Below are positions 2,743 to 63,206 of a DNA stretch of 64,000 nucleotides, one piece after another. Each line of letters begins with the position of its first letter. Position 1 is the stretch's first letter. The DNA lies in contig JABDFW010000008.1 in assembly GCA_013286305.1 (NCBI GenBank), positions 1,596 to 65,595 on the forward strand, given 5' to 3'. Below the pieces are notes generated by a model, which worked only from the letters and a program-made list of their open reading frames with translations, ran no database searches and was not told where the DNA came from. This stretch comes from Bacteroidota bacterium. Lineage in GTDB: Bacteria > Bacteroidota > Bacteroidia > Chitinophagales > Chitinophagaceae. The position numbers and the translations under genes are program-made.

Positions 2743-5721
2743 TTAAAACGACAGGCTTGCACCCGCTGTTATAGTTCTTGGCCGTGGATAAAGAACATTG
2801 TCTATCCCACTGTATATCTCAGGGTCTGAACCTGTGTACTTAGTGATAGTAAACACGTTTTGACAGTTTAGAGACAGCCTGAGGTTGTAATTATTTTTTG
2901 ACAGGAACCCGGCATTGTATGTAATACCCAGGTTATCCATTTTCAGGAACGAAGCATTTTCTACGTAATACGAAGAAAAGAACTGGTTATTGTAAAAGTT
3001 GGTTGTCAATACAGATGCCGGAGCATTCTGCAGGAATCCTGTCGGGTTCAATACATTTCTTGTTACAGCAAGGTTTGAGGCAGCGTTATTATACATGTAG
3101 TTACCAACACTTGCACGCAGTACTGTGCTGATGCTCCATTTTTTATACGTTACGCTTGTTGTAAAGCCGAATGTGAACGGTGCGAAAGGCGATTTGTAGT
3201 GTATCAGGTCTTTCTGATTAATTATCCCGTCCCTGTTCTGGTCTACATACAAACCTTCAATAGGCTTTCCATTTGCATTGTACACCTGCTGGTACACAAA
3301 GAAGGAATAAGGGGTATAGCCAACTGAATGCTCCTGTATGGTATTACCTGTACCGCCTGCAATGCCCCCAACAGCAAGGCTGCTGCTTGATTGGGCCAAT
3401 GAATCCTGTGATACAGACAGGTTGGTGATCTTAAATTGGTTGTAAGCAACATTAAACCCAACCTGCCATGCAAGGTCTCTGGTCTTTACTACGGTTGCAT
3501 CAATACTAAAGTCAACACCCTGGTCGGTCATATTGCCTACATTTCTTGTTAACTGGTTACCAAAGTCAGTAAGCGATGGCACAAATACATTTGCAAGCAA
3601 GTGGCTTGTTTTTTTATAATAATAATCTACGCTGCCGGTTATACGGTTATTTAAGAACCCAAAATCAAAGCCTGCATCCGAAGTGGCTGTTTGTTCCCAC
3701 TGAAGGTCTTTGGCATAAATAGCAGGGCTCCAGAAATTGTAATAGTTGCTTCCAAAATTGATCTTGGAAGTGTTTCCGCTTTGTGAATAATAATTAAGAT
3801 AGCTATAATAAGGTATGCCATCCTGTTGGCCAGTGATACCGTAACCTAAACGCAGCTTCAGATCGGATACAACTGTTGAATTCTTAAGAAAATCTTCCTG
3901 GTTGATCTTCCATGTAAAAGCCCCTGACGGGAAAACGCCCCAACGGTAACTTGGGCCAAAGCGTGAAGAACCATCGGTACGGATAGAACCCATAAGGATA
4001 TACTTATTATCGTAAGTATAGATCAAACGGCCATAATAAGAGATAAGTGTTACCTCGCTGTAGGATGTAGGGTAGGTAGGTGCAGTGCCCGGTAAAGTAT
4101 CATGAGCGGCACTGAACGACGGGTAATTGATATTATGGTAATAGTCATCATAGTAACCATAACCCGCTATAGCGTTAATATTACTTTTTATTGATTTGAT
4201 ATCTTTTACATAAGTCAAATAAAATTCGCCAACCTTATTTTGGTAATTATTATAATACTGGTTATCCTGCCCGCGTAAGGTTGGGATAGCATTATATGAT
4301 TGAGCCGCATACGAAGGTACCATCGTTGTTCCGTTATACTTGGCAATGTCATAACCTAAATTAAGGTTTGCATGCAGGTCTGGCAGAAAATGAAATTTGT
4401 AGTCAAATTGTATATTTCCAAAACTTCTTAATGCATGGTTCTCCGCATCATACTGCTGCAATAAGGCTACAGGGTTACGGTTTGATAAGGAGTTAGGCGT
4501 GGTGTCGTTGGTCTGCCACTCAAAATAACTTCCAAAGCTGCCTTTGTTGCTGAACACAGATTGTGTGGGATCGAAAGAAACCGCATTGCCAATTGCCCCT
4601 GTGTTCGCAGTGCGCGAATCGGTGCTTGAGCCATGGAGATTTATATCAATCTTCAGGTGCCTATCAAACAGGTAAGGTGTAAGGCTTACAGATACAGCTT
4701 CCCGTTTCAGGTTATCTGTTTTAAGAACACCGCTCTGGTTAAGGTATTCGGCCGAGATGCGGTATGGCAGGTTCTTTAAGCTACCGCTGATACTTAAATT
4801 GTTATCCGAAGTGATAGCCGTTTGGTACACCTGCTTCTGCCAGTCGGTATTTGAACTGCCCATCAATGCTTTTTGGGAAGTGGTACCAATAGAATCGATC
4901 AGGTTGCGGAACTGGGCCGCAGACATTACCGGGTACTCCTTTGGCACATAACCCGCAGAAAGCCCGGTGCTGAATGTTATTACAGGCTTCCCTCCTTTAC
5001 CATGTTTTGTAGTAATCATAATAACCCCGTTAGATGCTCTTGAGCCATAAATGGCAGTAGCCGAAGCATCTTTTAAAACAGAAAAACTTGCTATGTCATT
5101 AGGATTAATACCCTGTAAGTTAACAGAGCTGAGAGGCACACCATCAATAACAATAAGAGGGTCGCCGCTTGCATTTAAAGAAGCACCACCCCTTACACGT
5201 ATAGTGCTGCCAGCCCCTGGCTGGCCGCCGTTTGATGTAATAGTTACCCCAGCTACCTTACCTGCAATCAATTGTTCCGGCGAAGTAATAGAACCGGTTT
5301 GAAATTCTTTTTCACCAACGGTAGCAATTGAACCTGTAAGGTCTTTTCTCTTTACTGTTCCGTAACCAATAACTACAACATCATTCAATGAAGCGCTTAC
5401 CTGTATCATTGATACAGAAATAGTTCCTGAACCAATCGCTACCTCCTGCGTTGCATACCCTACTGAAGAAATAACCAATGTTTGGGCATTGGAAGGCACA
5501 GTTAGCCTGAATGCCCCGTTGTTAGCGGTCTGTGTTCCAATAGTCGTTCCTTTTGCAAGAACGGATGCCCCGGCAATTGGCGAGCCGGTGGAATCAGTAA
5601 CTTTTCCAGCTACCACTTTGTTTTGCGCAAGGGCTGGCAAGCTTATTATAAGCGCCGCTGGCAAAACAAGCATCATTAGCAGTCGTTTTAAATTCATAAT
5701 AGAAAGTTTTCTGGTTTTCAA
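2743..5721 (-). CDS. susC: SusC/RagA family TonB-linked outer-membrane transporter
   Basis: 992 aa. It has a signal peptide, a carboxypeptidase-regulatory-like N-domain (VAGKVTDSTGSPIAGASV), a plug (IRVRGGASL, VIDGVP) and a C-terminal barrel ending in F. Confidence 0.92.
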   Translation of the reverse strand: MKTRKLSIMNLKRLLMMLVLPAALIISLPALAQNKVVAGKVTDSTGSPIAGASVLAKGTTIGTQTANNGAFRLTVPSNAQTLVISSVGYATQEVAIGSGTISVSMIQVSASLNDVVVIGYGTVKRKDLTGSIATVGEKEFQTGSITSPEQLIAGKVAGVTITSNGGQPGAGSTIRVRGGASLNASGDPLIVIDGVPLSSVNLQGINPNDIASFSVLKDASATAIYGSRASNGVIMITTKHGKGGKPVITFSTGLSAGYVPKEYPVMSAAQFRNLIDSIGTTSQKALMGSSNTDWQKQVYQTAITSDNNLSISGSLKNLPYRISAEYLNQSGVLKTDNLKREAVSVSLTPYLFDRHLKIDINLHGSSTDSRTANTGAIGNAVSFDPTQSVFSNKGSFGSYFEWQTNDTTPNSLSNRNPVALLQQYDAENHALRSFGNIQFDYKFHFLPDLHANLNLGYDIAKYNGTTMVPSYAAQSYNAIPTLRGQDNQYYNNYQNKVGEFYLTYVKDIKSIKSNINAIAGYGYYDDYYHNINYPSFSAAHDTLPGTAPTYPTSYSEVTLISYYGRLIYTYDNKYILMGSIRTDGSSRFGPSYRWGVFPSGAFTWKINQEDFLKNSTVVSDLKLRLGYGITGQQDGIPYYSYLNYYSQSGNTSKINFGSNYYNFWSPAIYAKDLQWEQTATSDAGFDFGFLNNRITGSVDYYYKKTSHLLANVFVPSLTDFGNQLTRNVGNMTDQGVDFSIDATVVKTRDLAWQVGFNVAYNQFKITNLSVSQDSLAQSSSSLAVGGIAGGTGNTIQEHSVGYTPYSFFVYQQVYNANGKPIEGLYVDQNRDGIINQKDLIHYKSPFAPFTFGFTTSVTYKKWSISTVLRASVGNYMYNNAASNLAVTRNVLNPTGFLQNAPASVLTTNFYNNQFFSSYYVENASFLKMDNLGITYNAGFLSKNNYNLRLSLNCQNVFTITKYTGSDPEIYSGIDNVLYPRPRTITAGASLSF

Positions 5722-7095: not shown

Positions 7096-9276
7096 ATGTA
7101 TTCCGCAGAGCAAACAAAACATTTACAGCAGCAAACAAAAGCATTTATTGCCCATGCGCAGATAGATAAAAATGACGTTGAAGCTTTGCGCAATGTATTA
7201 CGGTTTCATGAATACAGGTATTACGTGTTAAATGACCCTCTTTTAGCCGACCCCGAATACGACCAGTTATTTAAACAACTTGAAAAGATTGAAGAAGGAA
7301 ACCCGGAATTGATCACCGGCGATTCCCCCACCCAAAGAGTTGGCAGCAGCCTTAACCAGTCGTTTCCTACAGTGCAGCACCTGGTTCCCATGCTAAGCTT
7401 AGACAATAGTTATGATGCCGATGACCTGCTTGATTTTGACAGGAAAGCGCGTGAATTGACAAGACTTGATGTGATTGAATATTGCATAGAGCCGAAGTTT
7501 GACGGAGCAAGTATTTCTTTAATATATGAGGATGATATGCTTGTTCGCGGTGCTACGCGGGGTGATGGTGTAGAGGGAGAAGATGTTACCACCAATATTA
7601 AACGCATACGCTCTATACCGTTGTCTGCGCCGTTTTCACAATACGGCATCCAGCAAATTGAAATACGCGGCGAAGTTTTAATGACAAAGGCTGCCTTTAA
7701 AAAATATAATGATGCACTTGCAGAACAGGGGCTTCCGCCATTGGCCAACCCGCGTAATGCAGCCAGTGGCAGCCTGCGTATTAAAGACCCCAAAATAGTT
7801 GGCAAAAGAAATCTTGAAGCGTTTTTGTATAATGTGAGCTATTATATTAGAGATGACAGATGGCAGATGACAGATGACAGGAAGAAGGAGGAAAAGGCTT
7901 CAGGCGCTTCTGTCAACTCTCATCTGTCATCTGTCAACCCTCTTTCCACCCACAGCGGTACACTGCAAATGTTATGGGAGTGTGGTTTTCGCTCTCCCCA
8001 AAAAGAAAAGATCGTTGTACAGGGCATTAATGAAGTAATTAAGCATGTACACGATTTTGAAGAAATGCGCGATACCCTGCCTTATGAAATTGACGGTATG
8101 GTAATAAAGGTAAATGAAATTGCGCTGCAGGATAAAATGGGCATGACCACCCACCACCCGCGCTGGGCAATTGCATTTAAATTTAAAGCAAGGCAGGCGA
8201 CAACTAAATTACGGGCGGTTGAATTTAATGTAGGCAGAACCGGCGCCGTTACCCCTGTTGCAAAACTTGACCCCGTGGCCGTTGGCGGCGTAACCGTTGG
8301 CAGTATATCTATGCACAACGAAGAATATATAAAAGAAAAAGACCTGATGATAGGCGATTCCGTTTTGATTGAAAGGGCCGGTGATGTAATACCACAAATT
8401 GTAAAATCTTTACCTGAATTAAGAACAGGCGATGAAAAACATATTCATTTCCCCAGGCATTGCCCTGTTTGCAAAAGTGAATTATACAAAACAGAGGATG
8501 AAGCTGTTTGGAGATGCATAAATATCGAGTGCCCCGCACAGGTGGTGGAACGCATCATTCATTTTGTAAGCAAAGATGCGATGGATATAAAAAGTTTTGG
8601 GGAAGCAAACGTGCGCAAGTTTTATGAATTGGGATTACTGAAAGATGTACCCGGCATTTATACGCTGGACTTTGATGCGATAAGCAAGCTTGAGGGGTTT
8701 GGTAAAAAATCAATTGATAATCTTCAAAGCGCCATTGAAGCATCTAAACAGCAGCCATTATACCGTTTAATATATGCGCTTGGCATTCGTTATGTAGGCG
8801 AAACAACTGCCAAAACAGTAGCCAATGCAATACACGATGTATTTGAATTGGAAAATATGAGCGATGTGCAATTGCAGCAAATGGAAGATGTTGGCGTTAA
8901 AGTAGCGCAAAGCATTTTTGCATTTTTTCAGAATAAAGAAAACATAAAAATACTTCACAAACTAAAAGAGCTTGGTTTGCAGATGTACAATATAAAGCGG
9001 TCTGCCCCAACAGAAAGCAATACCCTGCATGAACAAACATTTTTATTTACCGGAACGATGCTGAAACTTAAACGCAGCGAGGCTGAAGAAATGGTTGAAA
9101 AACACGGCGGCAAAATTGCAAGCGGCGTAAGCAGCAAATTAAATTACCTTGTAGTGGGTGAAGATGCAGGAAGCAAATTAGAAAAAGCAAAAAAAATAAA
9201 TACCATTAAGATCATCAGCGAAGATGAGTTTATAAAGTTGATTGGGGAAGAAGCCTCCTTAGCCCCCATCCCCTAA
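7096..9276 (+). CDS. ligA: NAD-dependent DNA ligase
   Basis: 726 aa. It has the KxDG adenylation motif (CIEPKFDGASISL), OB fold, Zn finger (CPVCKSEL...CINIECPAQ), HhH repeats and a C-terminal BRCT. Confidence 0.97.
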   Translation: MYSAEQTKHLQQQTKAFIAHAQIDKNDVEALRNVLRFHEYRYYVLNDPLLADPEYDQLFKQLEKIEEGNPELITGDSPTQRVGSSLNQSFPTVQHLVPMLSLDNSYDADDLLDFDRKARELTRLDVIEYCIEPKFDGASISLIYEDDMLVRGATRGDGVEGEDVTTNIKRIRSIPLSAPFSQYGIQQIEIRGEVLMTKAAFKKYNDALAEQGLPPLANPRNAASGSLRIKDPKIVGKRNLEAFLYNVSYYIRDDRWQMTDDRKKEEKASGASVNSHLSSVNPLSTHSGTLQMLWECGFRSPQKEKIVVQGINEVIKHVHDFEEMRDTLPYEIDGMVIKVNEIALQDKMGMTTHHPRWAIAFKFKARQATTKLRAVEFNVGRTGAVTPVAKLDPVAVGGVTVGSISMHNEEYIKEKDLMIGDSVLIERAGDVIPQIVKSLPELRTGDEKHIHFPRHCPVCKSELYKTEDEAVWRCINIECPAQVVERIIHFVSKDAMDIKSFGEANVRKFYELGLLKDVPGIYTLDFDAISKLEGFGKKSIDNLQSAIEASKQQPLYRLIYALGIRYVGETTAKTVANAIHDVFELENMSDVQLQQMEDVGVKVAQSIFAFFQNKENIKILHKLKELGLQMYNIKRSAPTESNTLHEQTFLFTGTMLKLKRSEAEEMVEKHGGKIASGVSSKLNYLVVGEDAGSKLEKAKKINTIKIISEDEFIKLIGEEASLAPIP
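7851..7936. repeat. Heptamer-word hairpin (GATGACA-type) inserted in frame within ligA
   Basis: The left arm AGATGACAGATGGCAGATGACAGATGACAGG (7851-7881) is imperfectly complementary to the right arm CTGTCAACTCTCATCTGTCATCTGTCA (7910-7936). It is translated as RDDRWQMTDDRKKEEKASGASVNSHLSSVN. Confidence 0.75.
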
Positions 9277-16110: not shown

Positions 16111-16348
16111 CTTTCCGTATCTACGAATACGAATCTATCAAGGTAGTTTCCCGTATCTACGAATACGAATAAATACGAATATACGAATTGGAGGCTACAT
16201 CCATCTACGAAATACGAATCAATACGAATATACAAATTGGAGGATATAAAGAAAGCGGGTTGAATTTGCAATGTACGAGATTCTTAATGCTAAGACACTT
16301 TAAACCCGTGTCGTTCTCTATTCGTAAATTCGTATTGATTCGTATTTC
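16103..16348. repeat. TACGAAT-word repeat block with an inverted distal arm
   Basis: Two tandem ~35-bp units (CAAGGTAG(C/T)TT(T/C)CCGTATCTACGAATACGAAT) and further (A)TACGAAT words at 16103-16240. The complementary words ATTCGTAAATTCGTATTGATTCGTATT sit at 16320-16347. Confidence 0.75.
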
Positions 16349-16386
16349 ATAGGACAACTCACTATTTGGCTTATTTTTGGCCTGCT

Positions 16387-20163: not shown

Positions 20164-21049
20164 CATAAAGAAAACATATAACAAAGGCGCAGTAACTGCG
20201 GTAAAGGATATTAATTTTTCTGTGAATAGGGGCGAAATATTTGGGCTGATCGGCCCTGATGGCGCGGGCAAAACAACGCTGTTCAGGATACTTACCACTT
20301 TGCTGCTGGCTGATGAAGGCACCGCTACCGTTAACAGTTTTGATGTGGTAAAAGATTACAGCAAAATACGGGATTGTGTTGGCTACATGCCGGGAAAATT
20401 CAGCCTCTACCAGGATTTGACTGTAGAGGAAAACCTTAATTTTTTCGCAACGGTTTTTGGCACAACTATCAAGGAAAACTATAACCTGATAAAAGACATT
20501 TATGTGCAGATAGAGCCTTTTAAAGACAGGAGGGCAGGCAAGCTATCCGGTGGCATGAAACAGAAGCTGGCTTTATGCTGTGCACTTATTCATAAGCCGG
20601 TAGTATTGTTTTTGGATGAGCCCACCACGGGCGTGGATGTGGTATCAAGAAAAGAATTTTGGGAGATGCTTAAGCGACTTAAAGCACAGGGAATAACCAT
20701 TTTAGTTTCCACAGCATATATGGATGAAGCCAAACTGTGCGACCGTATTGCGCTAATACAAAAAGGCGGGATACTCTCTATTGAAACGCCTGCAAAAATT
20801 GTTGAATCATTTCCTGGTAAGCTGTATGCATTGAAAGGAGGCAAAGCCTACCAGGTGTTGGAGGATATAAGAGCTTACAGTGGCACGGAAAGTTGCTTTG
20901 CATTTGGCGATGCATTGCATGTTACTTTTAAAAACGGGCAGGATAATGGTGCGCTGCAATACCTGCATGAGAAAGGCCATAATGATGTTAGCATGGAAGT
21001 AATACCACCCGGAATTGAAGACTGTTTTATACACCTGTTAAAAGGATAA
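20147..21049 (+). CDS. ABC transporter ATP-binding protein (YbhF N-half-like)
   Basis: Walker A GPDGAGKTT, signature LSGGMKQK, Walker B VLFLDEPT. Overlaps the HlyD-family gene's end by 17 nt. Confidence 0.9.
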   Translation: MITLSNIKKTYNKGAVTAVKDINFSVNRGEIFGLIGPDGAGKTTLFRILTTLLLADEGTATVNSFDVVKDYSKIRDCVGYMPGKFSLYQDLTVEENLNFFATVFGTTIKENYNLIKDIYVQIEPFKDRRAGKLSGGMKQKLALCCALIHKPVVLFLDEPTTGVDVVSRKEFWEMLKRLKAQGITILVSTAYMDEAKLCDRIALIQKGGILSIETPAKIVESFPGKLYALKGGKAYQVLEDIRAYSGTESCFAFGDALHVTFKNGQDNGALQYLHEKGHNDVSMEVIPPGIEDCFIHLLKG

Positions 21050-21055
21050 CAATAG

Positions 21056-21150
21056 AGTTTCCAGTTTATAGTTTACAGTTTCCAGTTGGTGAGGATGGTA
21101 ACAATTTTACAAACTGAAAACTATAAACTGGAAACCGAAAACTATAAACT
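21056..21150. repeat. Short-word hairpin (CCAGTTT/ATAGTTT words) between the two ABC ATPase genes
   Basis: AGTTTCCAGTTTATAGTTTACAGTTTCCAGTT (21056-21087) is complementary in word content to AAACTGAAAACTATAAACTGGAAACCGAAAACTATAAACT (21111-21150). Confidence 0.7.
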
Positions 21151-21156
21151 AAAATT

Positions 21157-21894
21157 ATGCCGCCTGTAATTATAACAGATAAATTAACCAAACGCTTTGG
21201 CGCTTTTGTTGCAGCCAGCGAGCTTACTTTCCAGGTGGAAAAGGGAGAGATATTTGGGTTTTTGGGCGCAAATGGTGCAGGTAAAACTACGGCTATGCGC
21301 ATGCTCTGCGGGCTGCTGAAACCTTCATCAGGCAAAGCAACCATTGCAGGGTTTGACGTCTATACCCAAACAGAAAAAATAAAACGCCGGATCGGTTATA
21401 TGAGCCAGAAGTTTTCCTTATATGACGACCTTACTGTTTCTGAGAATATACGTTTTTACGGGGGTATATATGGGATGAATACCAAACAAATAAAAGCTAA
21501 AACGCAGGACCTGCTTGCCGAGTTGCAATTGGAGAACGAAGCCAAAACACTGGTACGGGACCTTCCTTTAGGATGGAAACAGAAATTAGCTTTTTCTGTA
21601 TCATTGGTACACAGCCCCGATATTGTTTTTTTGGATGAGCCTACCGGGGGTGTTGATCCTGTTACGCGCCGGCAGTTTTGGGATTTGATCTATCATGCTG
21701 CCGATAAAGGTGTAACAGTTTTTGTTACCACACACTACATGGATGAGGCTGAGTACTGCAACCGCGTAAGCATAATGGTGGATGGAGTTATTGCGGCGCT
21801 GGACAGCCCCGCAAACCTGAAGCAAAAATATAATCATAGCAATATTGAAGATGTGTTTTACGAACTGGCAAGAAAGGCGAAGAGATCGGAATAA
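21157..21894 (+). CDS. ABC transporter ATP-binding protein (YbhF C-half-like)
   Basis: Walker A GANGAGKTT, signature LPLGWKQK, Walker B VFLDEPT. Confidence 0.9.
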   Translation: MPPVIITDKLTKRFGAFVAASELTFQVEKGEIFGFLGANGAGKTTAMRMLCGLLKPSSGKATIAGFDVYTQTEKIKRRIGYMSQKFSLYDDLTVSENIRFYGGIYGMNTKQIKAKTQDLLAELQLENEAKTLVRDLPLGWKQKLAFSVSLVHSPDIVFLDEPTGGVDPVTRRQFWDLIYHAADKGVTVFVTTHYMDEAEYCNRVSIMVDGVIAALDSPANLKQKYNHSNIEDVFYELARKAKRSE

Positions 21895-21945: not shown

Positions 21946-22138
21946 ACCCTGAAGGGGTTAAATATGAATAGCCCCGCATGAAATACGGGGAACAAAACAT
22001 AGTGTGTTTATACAACCCTTAAGGGGTTGAATAAATACGGTTTTACAGGTTGAACCCCTGCAGGGTTCAGGGGAGCGGATAGTTGTTTTGTTCCCCGGGC
22101 TACGCCCGGAGTTATTCATATTCAATCCCTTCAGGATT
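21946..22138. repeat. ~190-bp composite structured repeat made of two inverted ~55-bp units plus internal GGGGTT/AACCCC hairpins
   Basis: The reverse complement of the unit at 21946-22000 (ACCCTGAAGGGGTTAAATATGAATAGCCCCGCATGAAATACGGGGAACAAAACAT) closely matches 22083-22138 (TTGTTTTGTTCCCCGGGCTACGCCCGGAGTTATTCATATTCAATCCCTTCAGGATT). The centre holds AACCCTTAAGGGGTT and GAACCCCTGCAGGGTTC hairpins. Confidence 0.7.
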
Positions 22139-31048: not shown

Positions 31049-31127
31049 TGTATCCTTCTGATTTTTCGAGTGCAAAAAAAGAATATAATTTTTAAATAAC
31101 AGGTGAAAGTTTCGCACAAATCCAGTC

Positions 31128-31335
31128 TGGGGTAAGTCCGAAAGTCCGCCGAAGCCCGAAAGTCCGGAAGAATCAGCGGCAGAGTCCGAAAGTCCGCCGA
31201 AGTCCGAGAGTCCGGAAGAATTCACATTTACATTCTTGGGGCTTCGGTCTTTCCGACTTTCGGGCTTTCCGTCTTTCGGACTCCCGGTCTTTCCGTCTCC
31301 CGGTCTTCCCGACTTTCGGACTCCCACCGGACTTT
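31128..31335. repeat. ~200-bp imperfect palindrome built from GTCCGAAAG/CCGGAAG words
   Basis: The left arm holds repeated AGTCCGAAAGTCCGCCGAAG / AGTCCGGAAGAAT words and the right arm holds the complementary CTTTCGGAC / CTTCCCG / TCTTTCC words. The centre is near GAATTCACATTTACATTC (about 31218-31235). Confidence 0.75.
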
Positions 31336-31358
31336 CCGTCTTCCCGTCTTTCTCCTAA

Positions 31359-33844: not shown

Positions 33845-33927
33845 AATTTTTGTTGTTGATTTTTTGGTGACGATGTGTAATCATTAAAAATCTAAAATCA
33901 ATTACACACCCATTTATAAAAATTTTT

Positions 33928-33992
33928 GATCTTGAGATTTTGCGATTTTGTGATTTAAAAAGAAATCACAAAATCCCTCAATCCCGAAATCA
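33928..33992. repeat. Short-word hairpin (GATTTTG words) in the rpsK-rpsD spacer
   Basis: GATTTTGTGATTT (33944-33956) and AAATCACAAAATC (33964-33976) are exact complements. The flanking words are partly complementary. Confidence 0.65.
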
Positions 33993-34000
33993 GCAATTAC

Positions 34001-34457: not shown

Positions 34458-34569
34458 AATGCAAAATATCCGGCGGATTATATAAATGTGAAAATCCCAG
34501 GTATAAAGTACCAAATTCCAAACGCAACTTTACAGTGGAATTTGGAATTTGGCTTTTGGGATTTTGCAT
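34458..34569. repeat. ~110-bp nested word hairpin filling the rpsM-rpsK spacer
   Basis: There are three nested complementary word pairs: TGCAAAAT/ATTTTGCA, AAAATCCCA/TGGGATTTT and CCAAATTCCA/TGGAATTTGG. Confidence 0.75.
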
Positions 34570-47133: not shown

Positions 47134-48147
47134 TCACTCCCCTTTAGGCCCGCCCGTGCCGGTACGGACGGGGGCAGGGGGTACAACCTTCACGCCTTCC
47201 ATATTTATTGTTGTTACATGCGTTTGATACGCCACTCCTATTCTTTCATATACTTCTTTCATTACGACTTCAACAACCCTTGCCGTTTCCGCATCCCTAC
47301 TCAGCATAAAAATAGAAGGACCGGAACCTGAGATGCCACCACCCAATGCGCCTGCTTCTTTACAATTTTTCTTTACCTCGTCAAAACCGGGGATGAGGAT
47401 GCTTCGAATAGGTTCTATAATAACATCTTCAAGCGAGCGGCCAATAAGATCATAATCGCCTTTTATAAAACCTGCTACAAGGCCCGCAATATTGCCCCAT
47501 TGCTTAATAGCATCTTTTAATAATACCTGCTGTTTAAGTATTTGCCTCGCGTCAGAGGTACGCACTTCTATCTGCGGGTGAACAACGGTTACATGCAGCG
47601 GCGGCGCATCAATTTGCACTATATCCAGCGGGTGAATAGAACGAATTAATGTGACACCACCGTAGATACAGGGTGCAATATTATCGGCGTGCTTAACCCC
47701 GCTGGCAACCTTTTCGCCAAACATTGCAAAGCGCACAAGGTCTTCCTTACTAAAACGGTTACCAAGTAAATGATTTGCTGCAACAACTGAACCTGCGGCG
47801 CTTGCGGCACTTGAACCAATACCGCTGCCCGGCTTGATGTGTTTTTTGCTGTATAATGTAAAGCCTTTTACGTCGGGGGTTTCCTCAAGCAGGGCAAGCA
47901 AGGCAGCACCGCTGACATTTTTTTCTGCCACGGTAGGCAAATCGAACTCGTCCTGGTTGATGATGTGCACGCCCGGCTCATCACTTAACTGCAAAGTGAT
48001 CTCATCATTCGGGCCGTTCAGTGCAAAGCCGAGTATATCAAACCCGCAGACAACGTTTGCAACGGTCGCGGGAGAGAGAATGGAGATGCCCCCTACCCCC
48101 GTCCGTACCGGCACGGGCGGGCCTAAAGGGGGGTTGTGTAACTGCAT
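47134..48147 (-). CDS. thrB: Homoserine kinase (candidate start at the internal ATG 48147; the ORF is open up to 48561)
   Basis: GHMP kinase motifs (SPATVANVVCGFDILGFAL, KPGSGIGSSAASAAG). The only ATG between the DUF559 part and the kinase core gives MQLHNPPLGPPVPVRTGVGGISILSPATV. Confidence 0.85.
   Translation of the reverse strand: MQLHNPPLGPPVPVRTGVGGISILSPATVANVVCGFDILGFALNGPNDEITLQLSDEPGVHIINQDEFDLPTVAEKNVSGAALLALLEETPDVKGFTLYSKKHIKPGSGIGSSAASAAGSVVAANHLLGNRFSKEDLVRFAMFGEKVASGVKHADNIAPCIYGGVTLIRSIHPLDIVQIDAPPLHVTVVHPQIEVRTSDARQILKQQVLLKDAIKQWGNIAGLVAGFIKGDYDLIGRSLEDVIIEPIRSILIPGFDEVKKNCKEAGALGGGISGSGPSIFMLSRDAETARVVEVVMKEVYERIGVAYQTHVTTINMEGVKVVPPAPVRTGTGGPKGE
47139..47181. repeat. GC-rich hairpin repeat, long form, at the thrB 3' end
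   Basis: CCCCTTTAGGCCCGCCCGTGCCGGTACGGACGGGGGCAGGGGG is the reverse complement (42/43) of the copy at 48089-48133. It is translated as the thrB C-terminal tail PPAPVRTGTGGPKGE. Confidence 0.85.
48089..48133. repeat. GC-rich hairpin repeat, long form, between the DUF559 and thrB portions
   Basis: CCCCCTACCCCCGTCCGTACCGGCACGGGCGGGCCTAAAGGGGGG is the inverted partner of 47139-47181. It is translated in frame as PPLGPPVPVRTGVGG. Confidence 0.85.
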
Positions 48148-48561
48148 AAGTTTCTTTTGAATAGTTGAAAGAACAGTTTCCAATTTTCCTATTATTTCTT
48201 CATTTTTAAATCGAATAACAGTTAGACCGAAATCCCGCAAATCATCTTCACGTTGTATATCATTGCTTTTTACATCTTCACGTTCGTGAATATTCCCGTC
48301 AATTTCGATTACCAATTTAAGTTTGTGACAGTAAAAATCCGCAACATATAAAGAAATCGGATGTTGTCTTCTAAATTTGAATCCCCAATCATTCGTCTTT
48401 AAATAATTCCATATCAATTCTTCTGCAAAAGTCATCCTGTTTCTTAATTGTTCTGCTTTTTTAAATATCAGAGGATGCGCTCCATAATGCATATCCCAAT
48501 TCTTTTGGGAATTATCTTCGCCAGGATGATATTGAACTATATTATCGAAATTTAATCTCAC
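48148..48561 (-). CDS. DUF559 (Vsr-like/PD-(D/E)XK) endonuclease-domain ORF without its own stop codon, reading in frame into thrB
   Basis: MRLNFDNIVQYHPGEDNSQKNWDMHYGAHPLIFKKAEQLRNRMTFAEELIWNYLK...FKFRRQHPISLYVADFYCHKLKLVIEIDGNIHE...DFGLTVIRFKNEEI matches the DUF559 pattern (FRRQ..., DF.C..., IE.DG..H, RF.N.E.). Confidence 0.8.
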
Positions 48562-60951: not shown

Positions 60952-61365
60952 TCAACTTTTATTTATCAACTCGTATGATTGTTTCATCCATTTCTTTAAC
61001 TGTTCATCTATATCTTTCTCACCGTCAACCTTTACAATATGCACCACCCTGTGTTTGGATGTTTGTAAAAATTTTGCAACAGGCGGCACATCTTCCAGGT
61101 GATCTAAAAAAAACTCAATCTCCAGGTGGCTCTTCTTAACCTTTACTGCCAGGAAGGTACTTTTTGTTTTAAAAAAAATCACATCCGGCGCAACTGCTTC
61201 TTCCCTGTACCTGCCAAAAGTTTTGACTATTGCCTCTATTTCCTCAAATAATCCTTTCAATAATGGCGGCCGCTTTATAAAAAAGCTTTCCTTATCAACA
61301 AGCTTACATCCGTGTATTTGCTCAGCTTTTTTAAAGCTACGTCCGCATTTTGGGCATATCCACAT
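60952..61365 (-). CDS. Small Zn-ribbon plus DUF5655-like protein
   Basis: 137 aa: MWICPKCGRSFKKAEQIHGC, followed by a domain resembling DUF5655/DUF4287-type proteins. It starts 18 nt after the attenuator terminator. Confidence 0.6.
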   Translation of the reverse strand: MWICPKCGRSFKKAEQIHGCKLVDKESFFIKRPPLLKGLFEEIEAIVKTFGRYREEAVAPDVIFFKTKSTFLAVKVKKSHLEIEFFLDHLEDVPPVAKFLQTSKHRVVHIVKVDGEKDIDEQLKKWMKQSYELINKS

Positions 61366-61382
61366 AATAAATGAGTAATAAA

Positions 61383-61410
61383 AAACCCGCCTCTCTGTGG
61401 AGGCGGGTTT
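61383..61410 (-). terminator. Attenuator terminator of the ilv leader
   Basis: The minus strand reads AAACCCGCCTC-cacaga-GAGGCGGGTTTTTTATT: an 11-bp GC-rich stem plus a U tract, 25 nt after the leader stop codon. Confidence 0.8.
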
Positions 61411-61434
61411 GCTATAATTTGTTTATTGTTATAA

Positions 61435-61533
61435 CTAACTTATACCTCCATGCAGGGCAGGAATAATAATGACAACGACTACCACAACTATTGTGATATT
61501 GTTTACAATATTATTTATCCTGTTTCTAAGCAT
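61435..61533 (-). promoter_or_regulatory. ilvL: ilv operon leader peptide (32 codons, Val/Ile-rich)
   Basis: The minus-strand ORF is MLRNRINNIVNNITIVVVVVVIIIPALHGGIS-stop. It has a run of 6 Val and 3 Ile, plus more Ile and Val upstream, and is followed by a canonical terminator. Confidence 0.8.
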
Positions 61534-61550
61534 AGCGGCTTTATATACTA

Positions 61551-61581
61551 CGAATATATGAAAGCCTGTTCAAACTGCAAA
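61551..61581 (-). promoter_or_regulatory. Possible Bacteroidota-type promoter (-33 TTTG / -7 TATATTCG) for the ilv leader
   Basis: The minus strand reads cTTTGcagtttgaacaggctttcaTATATTCG, with a 19-nt spacer. The -7 box has one mismatch to TAnnTTTG. About 18 nt upstream of the leader ATG. Confidence 0.3.
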
Positions 61582-61586
61582 GATCT

Positions 61587-62092
61587 GACCACGATTTTGA
61601 CCTGATTTTTCTGATTGCCCTGACGGGCCTTTTACTTATAATCAGGCTAAGCCCCCGGCAACGGCTTATACTTTTTATTAAATAACCTTTTCCACTCAAG
61701 GCTGCCCGCACCAAAATTTATTAACATACCTACCTCAAAATTATAAGCCTCCAAATAATTAAGCCCCTGGTTGAGGTGGCTATTTTCTAACTTACTTAAA
61801 GCCTTTATTTCAACTGTTATTTTTCCTTCAACTAAAAAATCAACCCTTCGGTCACCAATTAATTTATCGCGATAATAGATTTGCACACTGGCTTCCTTTT
61901 TAAAATCAATCCCCATCAATTCAAACTCTATTGCCAAAGCTCTCTGACAAATAATTTCCTGGAAGCCATTACCCAATGCACCATGTACTGTCATGCATGC
62001 TTTAATTATTTTCTCCGTTATTTCACTATACTTGTACTCCATATTCAATAAGCGTTCAGGGCAATCAGAAAAATCAGGTCAAAATCGTGGTC
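61587..62092. mobile_element. 506-bp cassette: GxxExxY gene bounded by perfect 37-bp terminal inverted repeats
   Basis: GACCACGATTTTGACCTGATTTTTCTGATTGCCCTGA (61587-61623) is the exact reverse complement of TCAGGGCAATCAGAAAAATCAGGTCAAAATCGTGGTC (62056-62092). Confidence 0.7.
61647..62048 (-). CDS. GxxExxY family protein (PD-(D/E)XK nuclease-like)
   Basis: 133 aa: ...HGALGNGFQEIICQRALAIEFELMGIDF...RVDFLVEGKITVEIKAL... The G-x-x-E-x-x-(Y/C) and D...E.K pattern is typical of the GxxExxY family. Confidence 0.85.
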   Translation of the reverse strand: MNMEYKYSEITEKIIKACMTVHGALGNGFQEIICQRALAIEFELMGIDFKKEASVQIYYRDKLIGDRRVDFLVEGKITVEIKALSKLENSHLNQGLNYLEAYNFEVGMLINFGAGSLEWKRLFNKKYKPLPGA

Positions 62093-63206
62093 ATATGATC
62101 GTCGATTTTCTCAACTCTATATTTCCCTTATTCACTTCGCCGGTTATTTTGTTGCTTACAAAATCTGCTATCAGCTCCCCGATAGTGGAAGTGAAATAAA
62201 AATTTATGCTGTCAATATCTTTTGTTACAAAACTGTTCTGCAAGGTCCAGTTAACACCATCACGCACGTGTGCAGCTTCGTTCGGCATTCCTAAATAATC
62301 GAGCATCATGGCTGTAGATAAAATGGAGCCCAACGGATTGGCAATGTCCTTGCCTGCTGCCTGCGGGTATGAGCCATGAATGGGCTCAAACAATGCAGTT
62401 CCGGTTCCTATAGAAGCAGATGGCAATAATCCCAGCGAACCACTTAATACACTTGCCTCGTCACTGATAATATCACCAAACATATTTTCCGTAAGTATTA
62501 CGTCAAACTGTTTAGGGTTAAGTATAATCTGCATGGCGGCATTATCAACAAACATGTAGTCAACTAATACATCGTTATATTGCCCCGCTATTTCCTGAAC
62601 TACTTTTCGCCATAAGCGCGATGTTTCCAATACATTGGCTTTATCAACCAATGTCAATTTCCTTTTTCTCTGTTGTGCATATTTAAAAGCAAGGTGTGCT
62701 ATTCTTTCAATTTCGGGACGGGTATAAACGCAATCGTCACTTGCCCGGGTTTTGTCCTCACTCAACTCCTTCTTACCAAAATAAATTCCACCTGTCAGCT
62801 CGCGAAATATAATAAAATCAACCCCTTCCATTTGTTTCGCTTTAAGCGGCGATAAATGCTGCAACGATGGGTATGTAGTTATCGGGCGTATATTGGCAAA
62901 CAACTGCAGGCTTTTACGCAATTTAAGCAGCCCTTGCTCGGGCCTTACTTTCGCTGTAGGGTCATTATCATATTTGGGATGCCCTATTGCGCCAAACAAT
63001 ACCGCATCGCTATTTAAACAACTCTCAATTGTTTCATCAGGCAAGGGGTTGCCGGTTTTGTCAATGGCATCTGCCCCCATCAGGCAATAGGTATAATTAA
63101 ATGTATGGCCATATTGATGCCCCACTGCCTCTAATACTTTAATTGACTGGCGTGTAACTTCAGGCCCTATGCCATCGCCCAATATTACCGTTATATTCTT
63201 TTCCAT
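62091..63206 (-). CDS. leuB: 3-isopropylmalate dehydrogenase
   Basis: 371 aa with ITVILGDGIGPEV, NMFGDIISDEASVLSGSLGLLPSAS and EPIHGSYPQAAGKDIANP. The stop codon lies at the edge of the cassette TIR. Confidence 0.97.
   Translation of the reverse strand: MEKNITVILGDGIGPEVTRQSIKVLEAVGHQYGHTFNYTYCLMGADAIDKTGNPLPDETIESCLNSDAVLFGAIGHPKYDNDPTAKVRPEQGLLKLRKSLQLFANIRPITTYPSLQHLSPLKAKQMEGVDFIIFRELTGGIYFGKKELSEDKTRASDDCVYTRPEIERIAHLAFKYAQQRKRKLTLVDKANVLETSRLWRKVVQEIAGQYNDVLVDYMFVDNAAMQIILNPKQFDVILTENMFGDIISDEASVLSGSLGLLPSASIGTGTALFEPIHGSYPQAAGKDIANPLGSILSTAMMLDYLGMPNEAAHVRDGVNWTLQNSFVTKDIDSINFYFTSTIGELIADFVSNKITGEVNKGNIELRKSTII

Follow-up and report, generated by a model that had tools for sequence, protein, structure and literature searches.

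A GxxExxY nuclease cassette between leuB and the ilv leader of a Chitinophagaceae bacterium, and related palindromic repeats at operon junctions

In REPIN-RAYT systems, an IS200/IS605-like HUH/Y1 tyrosine transposase gene, present in a single copy and inherited vertically, sits between inverted copies of a repetitive extragenic palindrome (REP), a short self-complementary sequence with a GTAG or CGTC head, and the same repeat occurs gene-less in the same genome as doublets, singlets and clusters. The Correia/NEMIS, ERIC and Rickettsia palindromic element (RPE) families are short palindromic repeats that lie between co-transcribed genes and form RNA hairpins, and Correia elements duplicate a TA target; to our knowledge these families have no gene of their own and mostly no known cognate enzyme, and we know of none with arms built as arrays of units. 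The ends of Tn7, Mu and the plant CACTA/En-Spm elements combine a short conserved terminus with several repeated binding motifs per inverted end; these elements use DDE transposases (Tn7 together with TnsA, a PD-(D/E)XK helper), make target duplications and are ten to hundred times larger than the element described here. A further comparison is offered by the intervening sequences (IVSs) of rRNA, which in Coxiella are 428-444 nt long, have a 28-bp stem of terminal repeats, carry a small open reading frame (ORF) and are cut by RNase III, and which have long been suspected to be a mobile element (PMC4990558). Here we analyse a cassette that carries a GxxExxY nuclease gene between inverted repeats, inserted between leuB and the ilv leader in a 64,000-nt stretch of DNA (hereafter the window) from a Bacteroidota bacterium of the family Chitinophagaceae (GenBank assembly GCA_013286305.1, contig JABDFW010000008.1, positions 1,596 to 65,595).

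The cassette belongs to a repeat family with unit-built arms, an association with GxxExxY nuclease genes, turnover at the sites it occupies and an operon-junction niche. It is probably the gene-bearing member of this palindromic family, with arms that act as arrays of protein-binding units and with the GxxExxY nuclease as their cognate enzyme. The likeness to REPIN-RAYT systems extends to several features: in the source assembly, in a second organism (FTJK01) and in a locus of the Candidate Phyla Radiation (CPR; L071) the gene is flanked by an inverted repeat that also forms gene-less doublets; the repeats stand at gene ends and within operons, with no target duplication seen; and relatives carry the gene-bearing copy in synteny, with purifying selection acting on it. 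In contrast to those systems, the enzyme is a 131-aa PD-(D/E)XK nuclease, each arm combines a TCTGAAC tip with a direct array of 8-9-nt units, and at most loci the gene lies inside the hairpin loop. The plan of a tip plus a repeated motif is shared with the ends of Tn7, Mu and CACTA/En-Spm. With 23S rRNA IVSs (Coxiella, Leptospira, S23p) the cassette shares a size of ~0.45-0.5 kb, terminal repeats predicted to form a long stem around one small ORF, and a location within a transcribed essential unit, but it lies between leuB and the ilv leader and not in 23S rRNA helix 9, 25 or 45, its ORF encodes a nuclease whereas theirs encodes a four-helix bundle, and the comparative data presented below indicate conservation of motifs over pairing.

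The cassette and its gene-less relatives

The two arms of the cassette (61583-61623 and 62056-62096) are 41 nt each, 98% complementary (40/41) and separated by a spacer of 432 nt. The exact 37-mer within them, GACCACGATTTTGACCTGATTTTTCTGATTGCCCTGA, occurs in the window only at 61587-61623 (+) and 62056-62092 (-), and it had 0 matches in 100 shuffles when up to 3 mismatches were permitted. The cassette measures 506 bp from end to end of the exact repeats; counting the extended arms brings this to 514 bp. On the minus strand, the upstream arm (62056..62096, of which 62056-62092 is the exact 37-nt part), which was read directly and recovered by an inverted-repeat search, reads ATA-TGA-CC ACGATTTTGAC CTGATTTTT CTGATTGCC CTGA, that is, a tip followed by GATT-cored units at spacings of 11, 9 and 9 nt; sequence reading places the leuB stop codon, TGA (62091..62093, minus strand), within this tip. 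A linker of 13 nt (62043..62055, minus strand), which leaves no space for a separate promoter, leads from the inner end of the arm to the ATG of the nuclease gene. This gene, assigned to GxxExxY / PDDEXK_3 by profile search and predicted fold, encodes 131 aa and a stop codon (61647..62042, minus strand); the ORF runs from a TTG at 62048 to 61647 on the minus strand (402 nt), and the ATG at 62042 is the likelier start. A second linker, of 23 nt (61624..61646, minus strand), connects the nuclease stop codon to the downstream arm (61583..61623, minus strand, exact part 61587-61623), which is the reverse complement of the upstream arm.

Much of this anatomy was contained in the original prediction for the locus. 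The exact 37-bp terminal inverted repeats were confirmed by the inverted-repeat search and the exact-match count, the 402-nt GxxExxY ORF between them scored well above the cut-offs of the TIGR04256 and PF13366 profiles, the leuB stop codon does lie at the outer edge of one repeat (TGA 62093-62091 overlaps the arm end), and direct reading agrees with a discrete insertion between leuB and the ilv leader. An extra GATC word had also been reported outside the repeats; it flanks both repeats in the window, but the orthologous cassette at L004 lacks it, and it is therefore not a conserved feature.

Gene-less copies were found by scanning metagenome contigs with a degenerate arm pattern, in which locus L080 is the window's own locus. 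Two further contigs of the source assembly, Ga0206915, matched (L074 and L075), and their composition matches that of the window as closely as L080 does (tetranucleotide r = 0.98); the repeat thus recurs elsewhere in the same genome, as gene-less arms. On L075 the dapD stop codon lies in a tip, followed by six tandem arms at a 59-nt period, a spacer and one opposite arm, with no ORF, and on L074 a tRNA gene cluster contains a solo arm as well as hairpin units without a gene, at 4960-5072 and about 5190-5298. The window arm differs from the copies on these contigs at one or two positions, and together with the identity of the two window arms this points to recent copying or conversion. FTJK01 had one gene-bearing match and three gene-less matches, one of them in a tRNA cluster, giving one gene-bearing match per assembly against at least 3 gene-less ones. 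Gene-less units stand in tandem beside the gene in L021 and L032, are dispersed in L024, L025 and L027, and are also present at L071. The ORF lies inside the hairpin loop in most loci and outside the hairpins in L021, L032 and L089, and double tips were observed in L016 and L019. A solo arm one base different from the window arm was also seen just upstream of a nuoI-like gene (L084, 5402-5439; L077, 6264-6301), with a 37%-identical GxxExxY gene 1.2 kb upstream.

The nuclease and its arms across phyla

The window protein scored 122.3 bits against TIGR04256 GxxExxY (cut-off 35) and 118 bits against PF13366 PDDEXK_3 (cut-off 22), and these were its only Pfam and NCBIfam matches, with no HUH tyrosine transposase among them. 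Its AlphaFold2 model had a pLDDT of 93.4, and the top Foldseek matches of this model were Cas4 SSO0001 (E = 6e-5), the LHK and lambda exonucleases and MGME1, with TM-scores of only 0.45-0.52; AdnAB nuclease domains were also among the nearest solved structures, and no relative was found in the PDB by sequence. Residues D68, E78, K80, Q92 and Y96 (D, ExK, QxxxY) are invariant among 43 relatives and E29 is nearly so. By fold and by the motif set E...D...ExK...QxxxY, the protein is predicted to be a minimal RecB/Cas4-like PD-(D/E)XK nuclease. The family signature reads G26-F-Q-E29-I-I-C32 in the window, that is GxxExxC, at a position where at least 90% of the 43 relatives have Tyr; profile membership is unaffected.

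The GxxExxY family is very large, with 10,396 50%-identity clusters found at E <= 1e-3, and some members (P0254, P0259, P0274 and others) are 250-270 aa long with two tandem GxxExxY domains. An exact-protein look-up returned the same DNA from two assemblies only and no independent record. We found no support for a phage or defence role, as PHROGs gave no match for the window protein, PADLOC gave one weak type II restriction endonuclease match only, and a phage-borne family was set aside with only one match among viral contigs. Resolution of cruciforms in the manner of Hjc is also unlikely, considering the 430-nt spacer and the structural neighbours, which are Cas4 and lambda exonuclease and not resolvases.

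The pairing of gene and arms was examined in 65 GxxExxY loci taken from a scan of representative genomes and picked by similarity to the window protein, which represent Bacteroidota, Verrucomicrobiota, Ignavibacteriota, Chloroflexota, Fibrobacterota, Melainabacteria, CPR phyla and Gammaproteobacteria. In an inverted-repeat search anchored on the tblastn match to the GxxExxY gene, 77% of the 65 genes were flanked by an ungapped inverted repeat with a score of at least 28, compared with 0/378 same-size control intervals from the same loci, and the median score was 38 for GxxExxY genes and 17 for controls. Other GxxExxY genes thus have flanking repeats of their own, a point that the original prediction had proposed to check, and the repeats are family-specific. 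Anchoring a gapped arm alignment on ORF starts was set aside because in Verrucomicrobia an ATG inside the arm was mistaken for the start. The closest homologues of the window protein (74-78% identical) are in cassettes with homologous arms, some of them at the leuB-ilvD locus (L004, L007) and one in a trp operon (L003), where it follows trpF, whose stop codon again falls within the tip. The same trp operon of L003 has two GxxExxY genes, one before trpD and one after trpF (26-448 and 3001-3414).

The arms follow a common plan, a conserved outer tip and then 3-5 units in tandem, repeated every 8-9 nt. Bacteroidota and several other phyla have the tip (G)TCTGAAC in common. A unit period of 9 nt fitted best at 21 loci and one of 8 nt at 17, while control segments had no preferred period. 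The Chitinophagaceae unit is N5-GATT, which in the window takes the forms ACGATTTTGAC/CTGATTTTT/CTGATTGCC/CTGA; other units are CAGGAAAG in Verrucomicrobia, CGCGAATT in Chloroflexota, TAC(G/A)AAT in CPR and Gammaproteobacteria, and CACGGAGG, CACATAG and CAGAATT in remaining loci. Unit type tracks the protein clade and not the host phylum: TAC(G/A)AAT is common to Gammaproteobacteria and the CPR group Magasanikiibacteriota, and CGCAGAT to Melainabacteria and the CPR group Peribacteria. This is the pattern expected of a cognate pair of protein and site transferred together. Core sites of attC type have the form AAC...GTT, as do the cassette tips; an integron cassette or attC reading was set aside on grounds of layout, the arms being unit arrays that in the common arrangement lie on both sides of the ORF.

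Folded as RNA, the cassette is predicted to form a perfect 37-bp stem (minimum free energy -167 kcal/mol, z = -7.95), and RNase III cleavage of this predicted stem is plausible. No Rfam family matched the cassette, 19 related loci or the whole window (with no rRNA match), and the only leader-like matches were sub-threshold and located on the ilv leader. Among 54 loci, mismatches between arms, read on the sense strand, comprised 51 G-U, 70 A-C and 167 transversions, with no G-U excess, and the arm-to-arm mismatch rate was 7.5% at unit-repeated positions compared with 22.7% elsewhere (Fisher p = 5e-18). Covariation was assessed in 12 Verrucomicrobia loci between nuoF and nuoG whose arms could be anchored; a left arm was no closer to its own right arm (271) than to the right arm of another locus (273.4 ± 2.4). 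The lack of a wobble excess, the placement of mismatches between units and the absence of covariation within loci indicate that the arms are kept as motif arrays and not as a stem. The arms are arrays of a sequence motif, the signature of protein-binding sites, and we regard the units as putative sites of this kind. The 37-bp stem of the window copy follows from the identity of its two arms and appears to be a by-product of it. The suggestion, made for this locus originally, of a self-processing transcript is not supported by these data, to which can be added the solo arms, which are unpaired, and the one-sided arrays.

The ratio of nonsynonymous to synonymous substitution rates (dN/dS) among cassette genes is ~0.1, and arms are 87-92% identical between genomes in which the synonymous sites of leuB are saturated (proportion of synonymous differences, pS, 0.68-0.79), which indicates that the protein and its sites are both under purifying selection. 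Because of this saturation, synonymous divergence was uninformative as a test of vertical versus independent origin of the cassettes at the leuB site.

Insertion sites, turnover and other palindromes

Related genomes differ in what they have at the leuB-ilv junction. Ordered by the identity of their leuB to the window leuB, L086 (94%) has arms of another unit type, the left at the leuB stop and the right just before DUF5655; L087 (92%) has a gene-less hairpin (arm, 19 nt, arm) at the exact site of the window cassette; L007 (91%) has a leuB stop without an arm and a gene-bearing cassette between the attenuator and DUF5655; L088 (90%) has both of these sites occupied, the leuB stop by a gene-bearing cassette and the second site by a gene-less hairpin; L004 (89%) is in the same state as the window; and in L089 (88%) a hairpin is followed by the ORF and then another arm. 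The gene-bearing cassette is thus syntenic at leuB in L004, L088 and L089. A search for empty sites had been proposed with the original prediction; relatives do differ in occupancy, the leuB-ilv region having a gene-bearing unit, a gene-less unit, a unit at a second site or none, and this patchiness shows gain, loss and decay. In L086 the matched arms, built of GGATT units (1947-2310), enclose the whole ilv leader and attenuator and no nuclease gene, and could be either two decayed elements or an element with captured cargo.

Across the loci, neighbouring genes were co-directional with the nuclease gene in 58/62 cases upstream and 55/62 downstream. Cassettes were found between nuoF and nuoG (20 Verrucomicrobia loci), trpG and trpD (7 loci), trpF and trpB, leuB and ilv genes, metH and metF, pheS and pheT, mutS and tadA, and ispG and ech, and no transposase was seen beside any of ~35 distinct cassette sites. 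In loci of the Bacteroidota type the stop codon of the upstream gene is a TGA or TAA inside the tip, and the downstream start codon is often 1-7 nt past the other tip; the overlap of the upstream stop with the tip occurs at at least 12 loci besides the window. Native leuB ends in ATATGA even at an empty site.

On the minus strand of the window the order is an ATP-binding cassette (ABC) ATPase gene, leuB, the cassette, the leader ORF, the attenuator, DUF5655, ilvD and ilvB. Outside the element on one side is leuB, encoding 3-isopropylmalate dehydrogenase (62091..63206, minus strand; TIGR00169, 444 bits), and on the other are the ilv leader ORF and attenuator hairpin (61366..61533, minus strand), which are kept in L004, L007 and L086-L089. 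The leader ORF is rich in Val and Ile (61533..61435, minus strand; MLRNRINNIVNNITIVVVVVVIIIPALHGGIS), the attenuator hairpin is at 61427-61366, and DUF5655 (61365..60952), ilvD and ilvB are next downstream. Directly 5' of the leader ATG there is an AT-rich hairpin (61534-61582, minus strand), GGCTTT(T/C)ATATATTCG..ATATATAAAGCC, that is conserved in L004, L007 and L086-L089 and may act as an operator or as a 5' structure in the ilv leader.

The window contains further palindromes. In the ribosomal-protein operon, the interval from the rpsM (S13) stop (34571) to the rpsK (S11) start (34450) holds a gene-less iteron palindrome with the unit GGAATTT (34491-34565, minus strand), and that from the rpsK stop (34001) to the rpsD (S4) start (33844) holds another, with the unit GGGATTT/GTGATTT and a 6-nt loop (33921-33998, minus strand); the units of both are unlike those of the cassette. 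Between rplQ (L17) and carA there is a large inverted array of about 12 + 8 units of CGGAAAGTC/CCGAAAGAC (~31120-31340, minus strand), and the space that separates two ABC ATPase genes, from a stop at 21049 to a start at 21157, is taken up by an iteron palindrome with the unit (C/A)AGTTT(A/C) at 21057-21150. Upstream of nth (16120-16352) are three tandem left arms and one right arm with the unit TACGAAT, which is also the unit on either side of GxxExxY genes at loci L063-L073 of CPR and Gammaproteobacteria. The ligA ORF (7096-9276) contains an iteron palindrome with the unit CAGATGA (7849-7941) that appears to keep the reading frame, at about aa 252-283; Pfam reports the adenylation domain as two stretches. 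The palindrome resembles RPEs, which insert into genes. Two other inverted repeats are of a different kind. One is a GC-rich 46-nt repeat (47136-47181 / 48089-48134), 96% complementary with arms 907 nt apart, which overlaps the ORF 47134-48561 with one arm at its low-coordinate end and one internal, and is unrelated in sequence to the cassette arms; the other is a 52-nt repeat (21948-21999 / 22084-22135), 79% complementary with 84 nt between arms, which is not built of units.

Alternative explanations, mechanism and significance

An RNA module of the IVS type would account for the cassette if the arms paired in the leuB-ilv transcript and RNase III or the encoded nuclease excised or processed the ORF loop, or if the stem preserved translational coupling. 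The perfect predicted stem, the size and layout, which are like those of the Coxiella IVS (PMC4990558), the co-directional ORF (58/62 loci), the placement of stop and start codons at the foot of the potential stem and the gene-less units between tRNA genes, which come from common processed precursors, all speak for it. We nevertheless consider it unlikely, given that sense-strand G-U pairs are not enriched (51 vs 70 A-C), that arm mismatches are mostly transversions lying between units, that arms do not covary within loci, that solo arms and one-sided tandem arrays are unable to pair, that the ORF is outside the hairpins in L021, L032 and L089, that no Rfam family matched and that the enzymes nearest to the nuclease in structure have DNA as their substrate. 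The arms could also be the terminal inverted repeats of an ordinary miniature inverted-repeat transposable element (MITE), served by a transposase encoded elsewhere, with GxxExxY as cargo or as an addiction-type hitch-hiker. Pairing of gene and arms in at least 7 phyla with clade-specific units, strong purifying selection on the protein, the absence of visible target duplication and the lack of a transposase beside ~35 distinct sites make this distinctly improbable, even though gene-less copies outnumber gene-bearing ones and the other iteron palindromes of the window have no adjacent gene.

A domesticated host function, in which GxxExxY would bind arrays at operon junctions to regulate or insulate genes, or act in DNA topology or repair, with any mobility confined to the past, has several points in its favour: the gene-bearing copy is syntenic at leuB in several genera, the position between nuoF and nuoG is kept in 20 Verrucomicrobia loci, and arms and protein are under purifying selection. 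But occupancy is patchy among close relatives, the window arms are identical and other arms of this genome almost identical, a sign of recent copying, tandem amplification is present and the neighbouring operons are unrelated to each other, so that we give this explanation little credence. A free-standing homing endonuclease gene, which would cut the empty leuB-ilv site and be copied in with the cassette by repair, is very improbable. It would suit a small nuclease gene with a precise intergenic position and a site occupied in several relatives, but the arms recur at dapD, in tRNA clusters and at further loci whose flanks have nothing in common, homologous cassettes are found in trp, nuo, met and phe operons (~35 contexts), and terminal unit arrays are neither needed nor explained by homing. 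The original prediction had offered a non-autonomous or homing-type mobile unit. Nothing was found that this prediction had named as counting against it. "Non-autonomous" fits the gene-less copies; "homing-type" fails, since the same arms at unrelated loci do not suit classical homing. The window copy, which carries the gene, looks like an autonomous or master copy, and the gene-less hairpins like non-autonomous ones.

The reading that we favour, a gene-bearing repeat with a cognate nuclease, suggests a mechanism that draws on the comparative sequence patterns. The nuclease would bind the units of both arms as an oligomer and cut at the tips, and this cutting would copy or move the element, with gene-less copies mobilised in trans. 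The target would be a tip-like sequence, T[C/A]TGA, and selection would spare mainly those insertions that fall at stop codons, while insertion beside an existing tip would yield double tips (as in L016 and L019) and tandem arrays. By analogy, the best reading of the pair is a functional counterpart, with a PD-(D/E)XK enzyme, of REPIN-RAYT or of a MITE and its transposase.

Several points weigh against this reading. No target duplication is visible at the leuB, DUF5655, dapD or trp junctions, where the filled and empty flanks are too diverged, and the compared genomes are likewise too diverged to provide a clean filled/empty pair with identical flanks. The assignment of L074 and L075 to the same genome is based on a shared assembly and composition, the copy numbers come from an exact-pattern scan and are lower bounds, and the 65 loci, picked by similarity to the window protein, cover no more than a part of a family that exceeds 10,000 clusters. 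Recognition of the units by the nuclease is suggested by co-occurrence and by co-variation with protein clade, which partly parallels host relatedness. The other iteron palindromes of the window have different units and no visible cognate gene, and given such gene-less palindromes the link between repeat and nuclease could be looser than proposed. Finally, with Cys32 in place of Tyr, the window copy itself may be impaired.

It is possible, although we put this forward tentatively, that GxxExxY proteins are the enzymes of an unrecognised class of elements, spread over multiple phyla, whose palindromic arms consist of short repeated units and which a minimal RecB/Cas4-like hydrolytic nuclease would move or copy with no need of a recombinase of the DDE, HUH, serine or tyrosine type. 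The chance that new chemistry underlies the system is substantial. In open-access full text, GxxExxY, PDDEXK_3, PF13366 and TIGR04256 are only listed as "unknown" and no account of such a system was found, and an earlier description may exist elsewhere. If the proposal is true, such elements are adapted to the stop-start gaps of essential operons and to the gaps between tRNA genes, and they would offer a possible origin for the ORF-bearing intervening sequences of rRNA. The units can split operons, add stems to mRNA, mislead gene callers and break assemblies.

These findings suggest a testable role for a very large GxxExxY family that lacks an assigned function, in which each protein is accompanied, in its own arms, by putative binding units and a cleavage tip. 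They would account for small "hypothetical" genes and palindromes in the trp, leu/ilv, nuo, met, phe and ribosomal-protein operons of Bacteroidota, Verrucomicrobiota, CPR and other bacteria, and they may represent a second, independent instance of a lifestyle in which a repeat is accompanied by its cognate enzyme, hitherto represented mainly by REPIN-RAYT.

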